Shown here piece by piece: positions 44,463 to 51,896 of a stretch of DNA of 64,000 nucleotides. Origin of the DNA: an uncultured delta proteobacterium (GTDB lineage Bacteria; Desulfobacterota; Binatia; Binatales; Binataceae). Below the pieces are notes generated by a model. The model was given only the letters and a program-made list of their open reading frames with translations, did no database searches and had not been told where the DNA came from. Position numbers and translations under genes: made by a program. Numbering within the stretch: position 1 is the stretch's first letter; every line of letters begins with the position of its first letter. The DNA lies in contig CAVXXK010000001.1 in the NCBI GenBank assembly GCA_963765675.1, positions 2,208,001 to 2,272,000 of the forward strand, given 5' to 3'.

Positions 44463-44609
44463 CGATACTGCCGCGATTCCATCATGGCGGCCGGTCCAAT
44501 GGAATCCAGCGACCGGGTTGTGGATGGCCACAAATTCGTCGCTTCCGGTACAACTCCCATCGTACTAATATCCGCCGAGGGGGATCTTTCGCACGCGTCG
44601 CGATCAAAA

Positions 44610-46200
44610 ATGATGCGAGATCCACAAAAGATTCGCGTGATCAGGTCTGCTTCGATCGTGGTCATCGTCGTAGCGCTGGCCGCGATGTTCTTTGTGCGAG
44701 ATCACAATCGTTCCGCGCCGATGCCGAGTCGCGCATCGGCACCCTCTGTGGTCACGTATGAATCCCATGGCCTTCCGGCATTGCCAGAAGAGGCGCCTGC
44801 TACCCTGATAAATCTTCCGAGCTCCGTTCAGGCGGAGCGGGCCGTGGAATCCGACAGCTACAATGCCGCCGTCGTCGCGATTCCGATCTATACCCCGGCG
44901 CGAACCTCAATCAGTCCAATGATCCTTAGCCCGCAGCAACTCGCGGCCGATCTCGCAGCATTTAGTGCGGTCGGAAGCCCAGGCCCAGTGGCTCCCGCAT
45001 CCGGCTCTGGAGTTGCGGCAGGAGCGGCGCTCGCGTCGGCTGCGAACTCGAATCCTGCGGGACTCCAATTACGCACGCCCTCCGGTCCGGCGCCGATGGG
45101 CGCGCACAGAACCGCCGCGGCGGGGCACTCAGGATGGGTGCTGATCGCGGGCGGACAGAGCGGAGGCAAGATTGCGCTGAGCAAGGCCGAGTTGTTTGAT
45201 CCGAACCAGATGGATTTCGTCGCGACCGGTGCGATGCACTCGCCGCGCGCGCATTTTGTGGCGGCGGACTTAAGCGCGGGTCAGACCCTGGTCGCGGGCG
45301 GCGACGACGCGCAGGGGCATGCGATTGCCGAGCGCCGAGTTGTACGATCCGGTTACGGGGATATTTTCCTCGACCGGTGCGATGACGGTGGCCCGCGCCG
45401 GGCACACCGCCACGACGATCTCTGGATGCGGATGTCCGGCGGACGGGAAAATTCTGATTGCGGGTGGACGTTCCACCGACCCAGCCGCGCCTCTCGCCAG
45501 CGCCGAGCTTTACGATCCCACAACCGGCTCCTTCACAGCGACCGGCGCGATGAACCAGGCGCGCGCGTGGCAGACGGCTTCGCTTATCGGATCGGGTACG
45601 CTGGCCGGCGACATCCTGATCGCGGGTGGAGTGGGCGCCAAGGCGGTCGCGCTCGCGTCGGCGGAGATTTACGATCCGCGCACGGGGGTTTTCACCGCGA
45701 CGTCGCCGATGTCCACGGCGCGTGCGTACCAGACCGCGACCTGGCTCGATCCGTCAGTCGTCACCGGGGAGTTCGCCGGACAGATCCTGGTTGCGGGCGG
45801 ATTGACCGAGGACGGCATCAGCGATACTGCCGAAATCTTCGATCCCGCGGGAGAGACCTTCATTCCCGCCGGGACGATGATGGCCGCGCGCGCATACCAG
45901 GCCGCGGTGCTGATGCCCAACGGGGAAGTATTAATCGCCGGAGGGCAGAGCGTCGCCGACGCGTCACTTGCGACCGCGGAGACATTTGATCCGGCCAAAG
46001 GGGCATTCTCGGCGACTGCGCCGATGCGAAGCGTGCACGTCGGCGGGGTTGCCTCGATTCTTCCTGACTCAAGCGTGCTGATCGCGGGCGGACACTCGGA
46101 CAACGCCGAGGTTTACAGTCCCGCCACCGGACAGTTCACGCTCACCGCGGCGATGCCGGTCGACGTAGCATACGCGGCCGGCGCAGTTGTGGGGCAATAG
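44610..46200 (+). CDS. Membrane-anchored Kelch-repeat beta-propeller protein (frameshifted near 45328)
   Basis: N-terminal TM and Pro/Ala linker, then repeated VLIAGG...SAELYDP..G.F..TG.M..AR units spanning ORFs 44484..45989 and 45319..46200. Confidence 0.82.
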
Positions 46201-46207
46201 CGCATGG

Positions 46208-46792
46208 ATGAATCCTGATGAGATGATCGCCGCGGCGTGCGCGCTGGTCGCGCAGCGCAGGGCGAGCCGAGAGCGCGTGTTCGTGGCGATTGACGGATGC
46301 GGCGGCGCGGGAAAATCCACGCTCGCGCGCGGCATTCAGAATTCCATGCCGAACGTCAGTATTGTCCGCACCGATGATTTTTTCCGTCCGCTGCGTCAAC
46401 TCTCAGACACAGCACTCGCGCCCTCCAGGGCATACGAACTCTATTTCTCGTGGGAGCGAATGCGCGACGAGGCGCTCGCGCCGCTGCGCCAGGGCAGGAC
46501 GGTGAGATATCAACGACATGACTGGACGCGCGACGCGCTCGGAGAATGGGTGAGCGTCGAGCCGAACCCAATCGTGATCGTCGAGGGCGTATATTCGAGT
46601 CGTCCCGAACTTCGCGAGCTGCTCGACGCGATCATTTTCATCGACGCCCCACGCGACGTGCGCCGCCGCCGGATGCTCGCGCGAGGTCCTGACAACAGCG
46701 ACTGGATGATACCCTGGATGGCGGCCGAGGACTGGTACCTGGAACACGTCCGGCCGCAGGAATCCGCCGATCTGATTCTCACAAACGAGTAG
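46208..46792 (+). CDS. Uridine kinase-like P-loop kinase
   Basis: VAIDGCGGAGKST, DDFF, VIVEGVY, R...R motif. Confidence 0.85.
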   Translation: MNPDEMIAAACALVAQRRASRERVFVAIDGCGGAGKSTLARGIQNSMPNVSIVRTDDFFRPLRQLSDTALAPSRAYELYFSWERMRDEALAPLRQGRTVRYQRHDWTRDALGEWVSVEPNPIVIVEGVYSSRPELRELLDAIIFIDAPRDVRRRRMLARGPDNSDWMIPWMAAEDWYLEHVRPQESADLILTNE

Positions 46793-46800
46793 CTCGAGAC

Positions 46801-47322
46801 TCACTTTTTCAGCGCGGCGATTACCTGATCCACGATCGCGTCGGCTTTGGCGCGCATCTCTTCGTCGGTCGCGTCCTGGATCGGATGCGGAACGAACACG
46901 CGCCGGACTTCCGGCAATCCCAGCGCCGCGGCCTGCTTTTCCGCCGCGTCGATAAATACGTCCGACGCGATCATCACCGACGGCTTGCGATTAGTCTCGA
47001 ACCATACTGAATCGTGCACACTGCACGTTGTGCATGACCCTCAATCGGCAAGCGCTTCGATAACGAAGTCGCTCTCCTCGGCGATCTGGCGGCGCAATGT
47101 GTCCGGCGCCGGCTTGGTGAAGGTGGGTTTGCGGAAGCGCTTGATCTCGACTCCCGGAAGACGGTCCTCGAGTTGTTCGGCGAGGCGCTGGATCAGCACG
47201 TCGCCGCGCGGCTTGGCAATATCGAGCAGCGCTACGCGGCCGGCAATGTCGCTGCTGCGCGTCGCGAGCGTGCGCCGTAGCGGCACGCGCTCATCAGTCG
47301 GATCGACGATTACCTGTCGCAT
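46801..47322 (-). CDS. UGSC-type selenoprotein (Sec at TGA 47041-47043)
   Basis: ORFs 47041..47322 and 46801..47019 are in the same frame and join through TGA as ALAD-U-GSCTTCSVHD. A SECIS-like hairpin follows. Confidence 0.88.
47013..47027 (-). promoter_or_regulatory. Putative bacterial SECIS hairpin
   Basis: CGUGCA-GUG-UGCACG. The loop starts with G, 19 nt downstream of the UGA. Confidence 0.65.
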
Positions 47323-47347
47323 CGTATTTTCTCCTTGCCCCTGATCC

Positions 47348-48949
47348 TTACAGAACCTCTTCGATTTTGCGGCTCACGCTCGACGATCCCATCGGTCCGG
47401 AAACCCATCCTGCGAACACCGCCGAGAATTTTCCGGCCTCGCCGCCCGCAACGATCATATTAATATACTCCGGACGGCGGAACTTCGGAATTTTCGCCTC
47501 GAGCTGCTCGGGTGTCGGGTTCACCAACCCCAGCGCACGCGGGGACACGCCCTCGGCGCTATCTGCGTCGGGAAGGAGCTCGCGAATCGGCCGCGAAGTC
47601 ACTTCCTGGATGCGCGCGCGCACCTGATCCTTGCTCCATTTCTCGCGCGCGATCGTGTCGGCGTGCTCGGGGCATACCACCAGCAGAACCTCGCCCGCGC
47701 CGTGCTGTTTCGGATGCCAGCAGGCTTCGAGTCCCATTCCGAGCGACCCGACCAGAGCGCGCGCGGTGCGCGAAACCTGGTCCGCAATCTGGCGCGAGCC
47801 GGCTTCGAGCCCGAACACCGTCACCACACTGTCTTCGCGCGCGAAGCCGCGCTCGACGTGCAGGGGTTCCCACGGGCTGCGTTCTTCCCACTCGGCGAAG
47901 CAGGTGGTGAACTTGCCGATCGCGCCCATCGTCGAGCGCTCGATATCACCCGGCCGCGCGCCGCCCAGGTTGCGCAGCACCAGTTTAAGTGCGCGTCCGA
48001 TGGTAGCGTTGGCGCGGGTACCGTAGCCCAGCGCCATCATCGCCATGTTCATGCCGATTCGTTTGCGAATCGGACCGCTCACCACGATCACCGGGGTCGC
48101 GCCCCACGTCGTCGCCATCACGCCATGAATATTGAACTGGTCGGTGCAAACCGCTTCCAGAGCTGCCGTCACGACCGGCAGATACTCGGGACGGCATCCC
48201 GCCATCACGGCGTTGACGGCGATTTTCTCGATCGTTACCGGCGCGAGGTTCGGCGGCGCGATCGCGACCACCTCGCGCGGGTCGCGCCGCGTCCCGGTCA
48301 GCATCCACGCGACGCGTTCGGGGGTCGGCGGCACGACCGGCAGTCCGTCGGTCAATCCGCGCTCGAACATGAATTCGAAGACATCCTCGCCTTCGCCGAG
48401 TTCAATCTGCCGTGCCTGCATCCTCTCGCCGCGCGCCTCGGCCGCGAGACGTTCGGCGATTCCAGGTTCGACTGATCTCGAGCCGCATCCGGCGCGCAGT
48501 TTGGGGATCGTCTCCCAATCCATTTCCGGAGCGGGCTCTCCGGTGAGTTCCGCGAGCTTGGCCGCGAGCGTCTTCCAGTCGTCGCGCGCGAGACCGACGG
48601 ATTCAGAAATAAGAGCGCCGCCGCCGTCGGCCATGATGATGGTCGGCACGGTATCGAGGTCGTAGGCGAATGAAACCGCGAGCGCCGAGTCGTCGAGCAT
48701 CGGGCACGAAAGGGCGAAACGTTCGGCCAGCGCGCGATTTCCCGCAGCCTCTTGCCCGATCGCGAAAATATCGGCCTTCGCGCCAAAAGCGCGATGCATC
48801 TTCTCGATAATCGGAATCGTCGCGACGCAGGTCGGGCAGTCTTCCTTGACGAAGCACAGCAGAGCGGGGCGTCCGGTGGGAAAAGCGCGCTCAGCGCCGT
48901 CGAGCGCGACGAGTTTGAAAGCCGGAATTTTTTCGCCGATCTCAAACAT
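47348..48949 (-). CDS. Thioredoxin-like (CPTC) domain fused to an uncharacterised UGSC-partner domain
   Basis: N-terminal TlpA/AhpC-like FVKEDCPTC, linker GCGS, C-terminal LTDGLPVVPPT, NAVMAGC, RANATIGRA and EWEERSPW. Confidence 0.8.
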   Translation of the reverse strand: MFEIGEKIPAFKLVALDGAERAFPTGRPALLCFVKEDCPTCVATIPIIEKMHRAFGAKADIFAIGQEAAGNRALAERFALSCPMLDDSALAVSFAYDLDTVPTIIMADGGGALISESVGLARDDWKTLAAKLAELTGEPAPEMDWETIPKLRAGCGSRSVEPGIAERLAAEARGERMQARQIELGEGEDVFEFMFERGLTDGLPVVPPTPERVAWMLTGTRRDPREVVAIAPPNLAPVTIEKIAVNAVMAGCRPEYLPVVTAALEAVCTDQFNIHGVMATTWGATPVIVVSGPIRKRIGMNMAMMALGYGTRANATIGRALKLVLRNLGGARPGDIERSTMGAIGKFTTCFAEWEERSPWEPLHVERGFAREDSVVTVFGLEAGSRQIADQVSRTARALVGSLGMGLEACWHPKQHGAGEVLLVVCPEHADTIAREKWSKDQVRARIQEVTSRPIRELLPDADSAEGVSPRALGLVNPTPEQLEAKIPKFRRPEYINMIVAGGEAGKFSAVFAGWVSGPMGSSSVSRKIEEVL

Positions 48950-49013
48950 CAAAGCTATGCCAAGGACACAATGCTCCCGAGACGCCCCGCGCGTCGAGCG
49001 GGCGCGATTCGAT

Positions 49014-50312
49014 TCAATTGGCGGCGGAGACGGGTGCCGCGGGCGTATCCGATCGCTCGAAGCGATGGCGCGAGGGTGAATAGAACGAGACCGACGAGGT
49101 TACTTTGCCGTTCTGGTCGAATCCGCCGGCGATCATGACGTCGCCGTCAGGCAGCAGCGTAGCGGAGTTCAATAGCCGGCCGACGTGGAGTGGGCCCACG
49201 CTTTGGTATTCGCCCGGCGTTCCCGGAGTAAATTCTTCGGCGTCCATCATTCCAACGATCACGTTGCCCTGGATGCGCCATCCTCCGACCACCAGCACGT
49301 TGCCGTTTCCGAGCAGCGTCGCGGTAGCAAGGTAGTGTGGCACGCGCATCGGCGCGGCGGGAAGGAAGGTCAAGGTTTCAGGATCGAAAAATTCCGAGGT
49401 GTCGAGCGGGGTGAAGGAGGCGATGTTTCGCGCGCCCGGTCCGTACAGGACCTTGCCGCTCTTGCCGCCGATGATCAGCGCCTTGCCGGTGTCGAGCAGC
49501 ACCGCGGCGGCGCCGACGCGATCGCTGCGCATGCGATCCGCGATAGCGGTGAAGCGTCCGGTCGTGGGATCAAATATCTCTGCGTTCTGATACGAGATAT
49601 AGCCGCCCGGCATACCGCCGCGTCCCCCGCCCGCGATCAGAACCTTGCCGCTTCCAAGCAACACCGCGACGTGCGCCTCGCGCGGGACAGTCATATGCCC
49701 GGCGGACAACCATCGGCCGGCAGATGGATCGTAAATCTCCGCGCTGTCGATCGTGACCGTCCCGTTGCTGCTGCCGCCGGTGACGAGCACCCGGCCGTCG
49801 CGCAGGAGCGTGGCGGTATGGCCCTCGCGCGCGACCGACATCGGGGCGGTACTGGTAAACGCTCCGCTTGAGGGATCATAGAGCTCGGCGCTCGAGAGTG
49901 CGGTGCGAAAGCCTATATTCCGCTGGCCGCCGACGATCAGCACCTTTCCGCTTTGCAGAACGGTTGCGGTCTGGCCCATCCGCGCGACACTCATCGATCC
50001 GGTCGCCGAGAAAGTCTGCGTTGCGGGATCGAAAATCTCTGCGGAAGAGAGGACGCCGCCGACATTTCCGTTAACAGTGCCTCCGCAAATCAGGACCCGT
50101 CCATCCGTCAGCTCCGCGGCCGCATGGTTAGCGCGCGGCGATGTCATCGCGAGCTCCTGCACCTGATCGCCGAGCGAATTGGTGAACACCACCGGCTGCT
50201 CCGTGATCGGCTCGGTGCATCCTGCGAGCATCGCGAGCGCGGCGAGCGCGAATATTGCGGCTGCGCCGCGCGCAAGAATCATCTTGGCGAGATCTATCCT
50301 GGATACGCGCAT
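49014..50312 (-). CDS. Kelch-repeat beta-propeller lipoprotein
   Basis: Lipobox LAMLAGC and about seven repeats of R..H.A.LL.DG.VL..GG...SAE.YDP. Confidence 0.87.
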   Translation of the reverse strand: MRVSRIDLAKMILARGAAAIFALAALAMLAGCTEPITEQPVVFTNSLGDQVQELAMTSPRANHAAAELTDGRVLICGGTVNGNVGGVLSSAEIFDPATQTFSATGSMSVARMGQTATVLQSGKVLIVGGQRNIGFRTALSSAELYDPSSGAFTSTAPMSVAREGHTATLLRDGRVLVTGGSSNGTVTIDSAEIYDPSAGRWLSAGHMTVPREAHVAVLLGSGKVLIAGGGRGGMPGGYISYQNAEIFDPTTGRFTAIADRMRSDRVGAAAVLLDTGKALIIGGKSGKVLYGPGARNIASFTPLDTSEFFDPETLTFLPAAPMRVPHYLATATLLGNGNVLVVGGWRIQGNVIVGMMDAEEFTPGTPGEYQSVGPLHVGRLLNSATLLPDGDVMIAGGFDQNGKVTSSVSFYSPSRHRFERSDTPAAPVSAAN

Positions 50313-50346
50313 AAGAATCGGAATCCTTTTCTCTACGACGGTTGAG

Positions 50347-50925
50347 CTAGCGCGATTTGAAGCCCCGTGCGAGCGTGTTCATCGCAGCCCGCAGGAACAT
50401 CGCGCCCGGCCAGATTGTATGCTTGCGAACTTCGCCGGAGACCGGGCGGCTCGCGGCAAGATCGATTACCGCCGCTGCGACTCCCGACGGCACTGCGCGG
50501 CTCGCGTGGCTTTCCGCCACGCTCCAGCGCACGCGCAGCTCGCGATCGATGATGAACGACGCGGGGAATGCGATATCGCCCTCGCTATGATTGACGAGAC
50601 CCCACGCGGTGATTGCCTTGCGCTCGGTATCGCACAGAACGTGGAAGGGCAAATTGAGGTCGCGTTTCATTCCGGACGCCTGGTCGATCCGATCCACGGA
50701 AATCGCGGCGAGGTCAGCGCCAACCGCACGGATTTTTTCATACTCGCGCGCATAATCCGCCAACTGGCGAAGGCAGAACGGTCACCAATGCCCTCGGTAG
50801 AAAACCACCACGCAAAATCCGCCCGCCGCGAGCTCACCGAGCCGGCGCGATCTTCCGTCGGTGTCGGGAAGTGCGATATCGGGAACCGTCTCGCCCATCG
50901 CAGGCGGATGCTGCTGCTCGTCCAT
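50347..50925 (-). CDS. Selenocysteine-containing AhpC/TSA (peroxiredoxin-like) protein, UxxC motif (Sec at TGA 50782-50784)
   Basis: ATG 50925 opens MDEQQ..GETVPDIALPDTDG..VVFYRGHW-TGA-PFCLRQL, in frame with ORF 50347..50763 (AISVD, LCD, PASFIID). Confidence 0.88.
50756..50771 (-). promoter_or_regulatory. Putative bacterial SECIS hairpin
   Basis: UUCGCC-AGUU-GGCGGA. The loop begins 16 nt after the UGA, with G at loop position 2. Confidence 0.6.
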
Positions 50926-51104
50926 CGCGCGATTCTATCGGCCACGCGCAACTCTGTCATTATCCAATCTGGCGGATCCGGGGCCTCCAAGCGGACGGGA
51001 TTTGCCGATTGAAGTCGTCGTTCTACCTGCCCCTGGGGCTCGTATCGGCGAGCGGTTTCCCGTCCCAATCCTCGAACCGCTCCTCGATCGTCAAGCCGGT
51101 GGGT

Positions 51105-51569
51105 CTATCGACGCCTGCCAGTTCGTCCGGGTCCGCCAAACCATTCGATGCGTATGCGAAGCGCGGTAGCGGCTTTCGCGAATGTGTCATCGGCGGTGGC
51201 GACGGTATCCGCTCCGATATCGGTCGCGATCGCCAAATGAAGCGCGTCGAGCGTCCGGAGCGGGATTGAGGCGAGACGGATCAGAATATCGCCGGCGCCG
51301 ATGGCGTGCCGATCTTCGAGCGCATGTATCTCGAGGAATCCCTGCGCGATATCGCTTTCGAAGGCTCGTGCCACCCTGTGCTCCGCCGCGGCATCGATGT
51401 CCCGGTTCCGGCGGCGGCGTCCCAGCAGGCACCGCAGCTCGACCATCGTGAGACGGCTGATTGATACCGAGGTCAGGCGTCCCAGGAATCGGTCGAACTC
51501 TTCCGATCCTGCTTCGCGCAGATAGCGTTTGGCCAGAGCGCTGGTGTCGATATAGATGGCGCTGCTCAG
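51105..51569 (-). CDS. vapC: VapC-family PIN-domain toxin
   Basis: IYIDTSALAKRY...E...LRTLDALHLA..ATAD. It needs a CTG start overlapping the antitoxin stop. Confidence 0.88.
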   Translation of the reverse strand: MSSAIYIDTSALAKRYLREAGSEEFDRFLGRLTSVSISRLTMVELRCLLGRRRRNRDIDAAAEHRVARAFESDIAQGFLEIHALEDRHAIGAGDILIRLASIPLRTLDALHLAIATDIGADTVATADDTFAKAATALRIRIEWFGGPGRTGRRR

Positions 51570-51793
51570 CGCCGTTCCCGATCCTGACGAATCAGCGTTT
51601 CACTGGGAACTTTCAATCGCGGCATCGACGCACGCAATTCGCCGCGCGAAGGGATGCCGCGCCGGGATCGCGCGGGCAGGATCCGGGCCAGGGGCCGTCC
51701 TCGGCGGGTGACGACGACCTCACCGGCCTCGGCAACGATCTCGTCAAGGTGCGGGAGCGCGGTCCTCATCTCCCTGATACTCAGTGTCTTCAC
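51566..51793 (-). CDS. Phd/YefM-family antitoxin
   Basis: (V)KTLSIRE...GEVVVTRRGRPLARILP, directly upstream of the PIN gene. Confidence 0.88.
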   Translation of the reverse strand: MKTLSIREMRTALPHLDEIVAEAGEVVVTRRGRPLARILPARSRRGIPSRGELRASMPRLKVPSETLIRQDRERR

Positions 51794-51810
51794 GCGATGC
51801 TCCAGCAATG

Positions 51811-51840
51811 GTGTCACATCTATATTTGATGTGTCACATA
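51811..51840. promoter_or_regulatory. Putative TA operator
   Basis: GTGTCACAT occurs twice at 20-bp spacing, with an inner CACATC-N7-GATGTG palindrome, about 20 bp upstream of the antitoxin start. Confidence 0.65.
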
Positions 51841-51896
51841 CGCCGACTGCGCACAAGCGCTTAGGGGACCGCTTGGGCGTAATCTTTGGATGGGGC

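Follow-up and report, generated by a model that had tools for sequence, protein, structure and literature searches.

Does a tight cluster of four genes, two of which encode selenoproteins, represent one redox system or two independent ones lying side by side? The question is raised by a locus on contig CAVXXK010000001.1 (GenBank assembly GCA_963765675.1) of an uncultured delta proteobacterium of the family Binataceae. The stretch of 64,000 nucleotides (nt) that was analyzed is called the window, and feature coordinates refer to it unless a contig is named. In the order of reading, the genes are g1 (50347-50925), encoding a peroxiredoxin-like (Prx-like; AhpC/TSA fold) UxxC selenoprotein of 192 amino acids (aa) with selenocysteine (Sec, U) 48 in the motif WUPFC; g2 (49014-50312), encoding a Kelch-repeat β-propeller lipoprotein of 432 aa; g3 (47348-48952), encoding 534 aa in which a redoxin/thioredoxin-like domain is fused to a large domain herein named g3C (residues about 150-534); and g4 (46801-47322), encoding a UGSC-family selenoprotein of 173 aa with Sec94 in UGSCTTC. 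All four are located on the minus strand with intergenic gaps of 34, 61, and 25 nt; their shared orientation and gaps of about 25-65 bp had been described in an earlier note on this DNA. That note took them for one multicomponent thiol/selenol redox system, possibly coupled to an exported β-propeller. The probable answer is a different one: two independent modules, perhaps on one transcript—module A consisting of g1 and g2, and module B consisting of g3 and g4 and forming a two-part selenoenzyme.

The evidence for module B comes from 41 genomes that are class-level kin of the source organism. Of these, 30 contain UGSC and 31 contain g3C, and the two sets coincide apart from G033 (84% complete), where a g3C hit that reaches the end of a contig is present without UGSC. 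The copy numbers of UGSC and g3C track each other as well, with 12/12 in G026, 6/6 in G031, and 7/8 in G039. Adjacency was determined at the window and 40 loci around UGSC matches, all chosen by UGSC alone. Herein, a g3C hit on the same strand lies within 600 nt at 41 of 42 UGSC hits, with g3C preceding UGSC in 29 of the adjacent pairs and following it in 12. Beyond close kin, no third gene family was found to recur around g3C–UGSC by neighborhood clustering, which is noisy and contains shadow open reading frames (ORFs) of high-GC DNA.

The two proteins are also found as a single chain. Among 54 hand-picked longer proteins, taken from 150 listed g3C representatives, a whole or partial UGSC domain occurs at either end in 27, AhpC-TSA/Redoxin in seven, FeThRed_B (PF02943) in two, and nothing known in 19. 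The FeThRed_B fusions are P0147 and P0250, the latter with the order UGSC fragment, g3C, FeThRed_B. One representative of 549 aa is a natural fusion in the Cys form. Six fusions with a UGSC match ending at profile position 92 have …GD or …AD as their last residues, immediately ahead of the Sec site; judging from these ends, they are cut at the TGA by gene callers. Co-occurrence, adjacency, and repeated fusion thus support, on comparative grounds, that g3C and UGSC are a conserved and functionally tied unit, and this part of the redox system proposed in the earlier note stands.

Both g1 and g4 are confirmed by sequence comparison as real selenoprotein genes of catalogued families. With translation table 11, g1 is split into 47 aa and 138 aa and g4 into 93 aa and 72 aa; only when TGA is read as Sec do the full-length proteins result. 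The in-frame TGA of g4 (Sec94; 47041..47043, minus strand) is a TGA at the aligned column in 42/42 tblastn hits, and that of g1 (Sec48; 50782..50784, minus strand) in 8/8 tblastn hits and 15/15 further sequences, or 23/23 altogether. The protein alignments run on in frame 3′ of the TGA to the C terminus, and the hidden Markov model (HMM) matches of g1 and g4 in Pfam and NCBIfam extend across it. The UGSC query yields 55 matches in the relatives, 52 of them with exactly one TGA; of the 17 Prx-like matches, 16 have one TGA and the remaining one is a fragment that falls short of the site. Cysteines aligned with the TGAs are found for both families. At the UGSC column, CGSC is present in two full-length g3C–UGSC fusions, and at the Prx-like column of 74 related loci, Cys is present in 69, which come from other phyla, and TGA in five, a count that is biased since Cys was a fixed part of the pattern searched for.

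Both TGAs precede a hairpin that resembles a selenocysteine insertion sequence (SECIS). In g1 (50756..50771, minus strand), it consists of a 6-bp stem with an AGUU loop and starts 11 nt past the UGA; in g4 (47013..47027, minus strand), it is CGUGCA-GUG-UGCACG and starts 13 nt past the UGA. In alignments, 95.8% of cells are paired for g1 and 95.0% for g4, with changes on both sides in 2/6 and 4/6 pairs (15 cells in the latter), and the covariation score is reached by no shuffle for g1 and by 0/500 for g4, both hairpins having been drawn by eye from the same sequences that were used to score covariation. The most common change in the g4 hairpin turns a Cys codon of the 5′ arm into a Trp codon and is offset in the 3′ arm by a silent change of a Val codon. 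It is because of this comparison between sequences that the hairpins are convincing, as the single-sequence folding energies 3′ of the TGAs are ordinary (z 0.02 to -0.82). Rfam gave no match at E ≤ 1 over 46500-51300. Both genes hence show what defines a bacterial SECIS element, meaning a hairpin shortly 3′ of the UGA with compensatory changes.

The machinery for Sec decoding is encoded in the source genome (4.5 Mb, 16 contigs, 95.6% complete), in which selA, selB, selD, and tRNA-Sec were all found. The selB match has 328.6 bits, and selD, which adjoins it (C1:995003-997912), has 375 bits and contains one in-frame TGA itself. Two tRNA-Sec genes with the anticodon TCA are located at G000:C1:720125-720216 and 835479-835570. 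The selA match (358.9 + 194.2 bits; G000:C1:1401804-1403124, L001 about 2285-2300) is divided between two adjacent frames that cover residues 2-267 and 264-443, and the break lies inside a CCGCCGCG run. A consensus error is the more likely cause. With this, the in-frame TGAs at redox-motif positions, the hairpins behind them, the splitting of both genes by gene callers, and the presence of the Sec genes and of aligned cysteines have all turned out as the earlier note described or proposed to check.

The smaller partner in module B, g4, is a full-length member of the known UGSC family that the note had named, with 154 bits for PF24696 (cut-off 25) and 159.7 bits for NF041046 (cut-off 125). Across 36 sequences, U94, G95, C97, and F123 do not vary, and the U/C-G-S-C motif is retained. 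An AlphaFold 2 (AF2) model with a predicted local distance difference test (pLDDT) value of 94.6 exhibits a five-strand flavodoxin-like α/β fold, with Sec94 located at the start of the helix that follows strand 3; its structural matches are generic flavodoxin-like ones with template modeling (TM) scores of 0.44-0.50. Family papers, as far as their accessible text goes, suggest a thioredoxin-like fold instead (PMC1976440, PMC2398784). In the same accessible text, UGSC figures since 2007-2008 as a selenoprotein whose function is not known and which is abundant in aquatic metagenomes (PMC1976440, PMC2398784; Zhang and Gladyshev), and available parts of a 2026 review still list it as 'uncharacterized' (PMC13188914). 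Hyphomonas neptunium, named in PMC1976440, would be a UGSC carrier that can be cultured. Available sections of the 2008 paper also report UGSC joined in one protein to 'Unknown_1', a conserved domain that may or may not correspond to g3C (PMC2398784). Searched against Pfam at E ≤ 10, where the HMMER filters drop most hits above about 0.1, UGSC finds no family but its own, apart from a DUF2922 hit that is put down to chance.

The larger partner, g3, starts with a redoxin-like domain (residues 1-125; 48578..48952, minus strand) that contains CPTC at residues 39-42. It scores 26.1 bits for Redoxin against a cut-off of 26.6 and 23.7 bits for AhpC-TSA against a cut-off of 26, and its assignment rests on these near-threshold scores and a 16-sequence alignment; closer homologues exceed the Pfam cut-offs and carry the name TlpA family in their source records. 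In the alignment, which comprises 16 redoxin-fused homologues with 36-78% identity, C39, G155, C156, and C351 are invariant. Cys156 (codon 48485..48487, minus strand) is part of the linker motif PGCGS. The CPTC and GCGS (residues 155-158) motifs pointed out in the earlier note are hence present and, apart from C42, conserved, with the addition that PGCGS is limited to the fused form and absent from stand-alone g3C proteins. The closest homologues are labelled Candidatus Binataceae by their sources.

The g3C domain itself (about 350-385 aa; 47351..48505, minus strand) carries the motifs TDGLPVVPPT, NAVMAGC, RANATIGRA, CxxE, and VAGG. Herein, the D of the first, the C of NAVMAGC, the N and R of RANATIGR, the E of CxxE, and the G of VAGG are invariant. 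The family is very large, with 5311 cluster representatives (50% clusters) at E ≤ 0.001, of which 1310 remain at E ≤ 1e-30. Scans with Pfam and NCBIfam gave no family model for g3 residues 126-534, and Pfam gave none for g3C even at E ≤ 10, again with filters that drop most hits above about 0.1. The AF2 model of g3C has a pLDDT of 90.2 and a predicted TM score of 0.89. Foldseek returned no match for it at E ≤ 0.001 (best 7xky_A, E 5.1e-3, TM 0.24), a wide VIA structure search returned none at Z ≥ 8 (best Z 6.2 over 96 residues), and profile searches of g3C and UGSC against the Protein Data Bank sequences returned none below E 0.3, for g3C none below E 0.9. In the ESM Atlas, g3C matches unnamed clusters and one cluster in which 16% of the members contain UGSC. 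As far as the model can be relied upon, g3C appears to be without a solved fold relative among the structures searched, and no fold is assigned. Class I fumarate hydratase, Toblerone-fold hydrolases, and, over residues 235-366, chorismate-mutase/Rid-like sandwiches were considered and rejected, as they gave weak partial matches only.

What might such a pair do? In module B, g3C would be the probable catalytic or substrate-binding part, to which the small α/β UGSC protein would supply a Sec-x-x-Cys redox center. A substrate would be reduced at g3C with the aid of Sec94 and Cys97 of UGSC, leaving a selenenyl-sulfide. This would be re-reduced by the redoxin-like domain of g3 through Cys39, probably by way of Cys156, which is invariant in the linker, and of two conserved cysteines of g3C, Cys253 and Cys351. 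The input domains fused to g3C—redoxin-like in g3, related to the ferredoxin-thioredoxin reductase (FTR) elsewhere—would deliver the reducing equivalents, and because they would do so, a reductase is proposed. The FTR catalytic subunit (PF02943), which is not encoded in the window, is fused to g3C in 2/54 of the proteins scanned, once also together with UGSC, and suggests an alternative electron input. We infer a physical complex of g3 and UGSC together with this electron path and the reductase chemistry. The full proposal, namely that g3C and UGSC form a widespread, often-fused selenoenzyme of unsolved fold that reduces a class of small substrates by a redoxin/FTR-driven relay C39-C156-C351/C253-U94/C97, is given an even chance.

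In the glycine and proline reductases, GrdB with GrdE and PrdB with PrdA each combine a UxxC selenoprotein subunit with a larger substrate-binding subunit, and a thiol reductant regenerates the whole. The nearest working analogy for g3C–UGSC may lie here, in protein B of glycine/sarcosine/betaine reductase and D-proline reductase. Membership was considered and rejected: neither the GrdB/PrdB model (PF07355) nor the GrdE/PrdA model (PF09338) matched g4, g3C, or two of the fusions at E ≤ 10, at which the HMMER filters drop most hits above about 0.1, and g3C and UGSC have no profile match to any solved chain. Both selenoprotein families of the locus are already catalogued, according to the available text of the respective papers (PMC2398784, PMC9312934, PMC13188914). 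In the UGSC selenoprotein literature, as far as its text is open to a full-text search, no description was found of the g3C partner family, its near-obligate pairing with UGSC, the redoxin and FTR fusions, or a function. From its sequence, module B is a good candidate for an undescribed selenoenzyme. UGSC is accompanied by a single large protein family that has no name, and at this locus an electron-input domain is built in as well; UGSC, g3C, and the input domain make a concrete three-part construct. If the proposal holds, a function would at last be given to UGSC, which is among the most abundant aquatic selenoproteins, and the paralogue expansions, which reach 12 pairs in one genome, would stand for differing substrate specificities.

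Against all of this stands, to begin with, the view that each TGA is a true stop, a sequencing error, or the lesion of a pseudogene, with four short ORFs that are separate or no longer functional. It can point to apparent frameshifts elsewhere in the assembly (selA and a second Kelch gene) as well as to the ordinary folding energies and the empty Rfam search, but it is barely credible given a TGA column shared by 42/42 UGSC and 23/23 Prx-like sequences of many genomes, with conservation that stays in frame on either side of it, homologues that have Cys instead, covariation in both hairpins, and HMM matches that span the codon. A better case, though still an improbable one, can be made for the earlier note's single thiol/selenol system, in which the Sec-containing Prx-like protein would trade electrons with the g3 redoxin domain or UGSC, and the Kelch protein would be a target or partner. 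The two pairs part company even within the same genus. At the syntenic site of G009, a thiolase gene is followed by the Prx-like gene (93% identical), the Kelch gene (95% identical), a kinase gene, and the second Kelch gene, and g3C and UGSC are found nowhere in this genome; G018 likewise keeps Prx-like and Kelch without either, and G007 also lacks g3C and UGSC, its contig ending within Kelch. In G023 and G021, the Prx-like gene sits on another contig, and in G023 a long hydrophobic ORF additionally separates Kelch from g3. Around the 41 g3C–UGSC pairs in the class-level relatives, a Kelch or Prx-like gene is nearby only within the window's own bacterial family, except for L083 (G031), where a Sec-encoding Prx-like gene lies 1.3 kb from UGSC. 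None of the g3C–UGSC loci outside that family has Kelch, and among 69 distant Prx-like loci, none has any of the three genes (Kelch, g3C, UGSC) within 4 kb. Moreover, the Kelch protein is an exported lipoprotein, unlike the products of g1, g3, and g4, which are without a signal peptide. L083 speaks for a single system, as do the co-orientation and tight spacing, the single promoter-like site 5′ of g1 without an intergenic terminator-like site, and the same four-gene order in seven genomes (G001, G003, G004, G005, G006, the unpublished G010, and G016); the latter fits shared ancestry. Of the single system, the tie between g3 and UGSC therefore remains, while g1 and g2 form a separate pair, and the coupling to an exported β-propeller is not borne out. 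The reading of the tight cluster as one system is corrected accordingly: the other selenoprotein (g1) and the Kelch protein (g2) are no more than neighbors of module B.

The function assigned to module B has a rival of its own, which is unlikely yet less so than the single system. In it, g3C–UGSC would be a redox sensor or a carrier or trafficking pair for sulfur or selenium, with UGSC as the mobile carrier rather than part of a substrate reductase. The small size and generic flavodoxin-like α/β fold of UGSC would suit such a role, g3C has no recognizable catalytic site or cofactor motif, and the conserved cysteines could equally relay persulfide or perselenide. The 12, 7-8, and 6 paralogue pairs of G026, G039, and G031 look more like substrate-specific enzymes, however, and the repeated fusion to reductant-delivering redoxin and FeThRed_B points to catalytic turnover. 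Two modules, with module B as a selenoenzyme, are hence still preferred, and several points count against them. The relatives are kin, and the counts are not independent events. One of the 42 UGSC copies is without an adjacent g3C. The g3 N terminus falls just below the Pfam cut-off (Redoxin 26.1 versus 26.6, residues 6-112), C42 of CPTC varies between C, T, and S, and C253 is Ala in 2/16 redoxin-fused homologues. The domain g3C has no recognizable catalytic fold, and the words 'enzyme' and 'reductase' are drawn from its fusion partners. The two frames of selA may be an assembly indel or a genuine break, and the latter would disable Sec insertion. Finally, because of the tight spacing and the one promoter-like site 5′ of g1, the sequence leaves co-transcription of all four genes in the source genome possible.

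Of module A, the selenoprotein g1 belongs to the AhpC/TSA-like selenoproteins, a known family as the earlier note stated. It matches AhpC-TSA (PF00578) with 89.8 bits (E 1.6e-25, cut-off 26) and has UxxC at the redox site, which identifies it as a Prx-like UxxC oxidoreductase selenoprotein of the kind catalogued in the available text of PMC13188914 and PMC9312934. Its homologues, the Prx-like thiol:disulfide oxidoreductases, share the AhpC/TSA fold and have Cys in place of Sec, and a Prx-like gene is present in 16/41 relatives (E ≤ 1e-20). The fold is common to typical peroxiredoxins (PrxQ/BCP, AhpC) and ResA/TlpA, and the best solved matches are one of each: the peroxiredoxin-like 2ywn (E 9.3e-10) and ResA 3c71 (E 1.9e-9). 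U48 aligns with the first Cys of the ResA CxxC and with the Thr of the peroxiredoxin TxxC, and C51 with the peroxidatic Cys. Compared with FYPAAFTQVC in 2ywn, g1 has FYRGHWUPFC; hence Arg takes the place of Pro and Sec that of Thr, the PxxxTxxC of true peroxiredoxins is lost, and WUPFC resembles the WCPxC of ResA. Because the motif is ResA-like and the peroxiredoxin Pro and Thr are gone, g1 is more likely, from its sequence, a cytoplasmic Prx-fold thiol/selenol-disulfide oxidoreductase with a ResA/TlpA-like motif, and a peroxidase is less likely. From SelL-related and Prx-like selenoproteins it differs by a C-terminal extension of about 40 aa and a low score for NF040769 (SelL-related redox protein; 43.4 bits, cut-off 120). 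Unlike other Prx-like selenoproteins, it adjoins a Kelch lipoprotein gene, an arrangement that appears from the genomes compared to be confined to the window's own bacterial family. The Prx-like gene at L083 (G031:C1, about 3138265-3140345) encodes FYRGAW-U-PYC and lies on the strand opposite to UGSC; it is the sole such proximity of Prx-like and UGSC outside that family.

The second member of module A, g2, matches Kelch_1, Kelch_4, and Kelch_6 at E about 1e-30 and has a signal peptide with the lipobox LAGC at residues 29-32, as read directly off the sequence. Its score for the radical copper oxidases (GlxA/glyoxal oxidase) is 85.2 bits with NF052501, the cut-off of which is 800, and 37.3 bits with Glyoxal_oxid_N (cut-off 37.5). 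A glyoxal/galactose-oxidase-like H2O2 source served by g1 was considered for g2 and rejected, since the oxidase models stay under their cut-offs and g1 is without the peroxidase triad. By its distribution, g2 appears to be a local neighbor only.

Upstream of g1, a consensus scan found a sigma-70-like promoter match (ATGACA-17-TAGAAT, 10/12; 50932..50960, minus strand) just 5′ of the start, being one of two such sites in the scanned region versus 1.1 expected; the sequence scan of this region found no terminator-like site between the four genes. The -10-like hexamer ends 7 nt 5′ of the g1 ATG, and no Shine-Dalgarno sequence is evident (50925-50960, minus strand). Translation of g1 may therefore start on an mRNA that is leaderless.

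Paralogue expansions of g3C–UGSC are observed in G026, G039, and G031 (loci L073, L074, L080-L092), several of them clustered on G026:C35 and C44. Four g3C proteins of about 710-740 aa (P0141, P0153, P0161, and P0165) contain two or three g3C-matching stretches, a tandem duplication in one chain.

Beyond the four genes, the second Kelch-repeat gene (44484-46200, plus strand) encodes a membrane anchor at the N terminus and is convergent with the UGSC gene. It is divided between two frames with the switch near 45315-45325 and is in one frame in relatives, for example L053, so that it is either affected by an assembly indel or a pseudogene. On the other side, a PIN-domain gene (27.7 bits; 51105-51856, minus strand) is located between a thiolase gene and g1. 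It is preceded by a Phd/YefM-like antitoxin gene (26.4 bits, under its cut-off), together making a toxin–antitoxin pair, and a PIN match (E ≤ 1e-4, within 4 kb) is present in one of five close-relative loci (L104).

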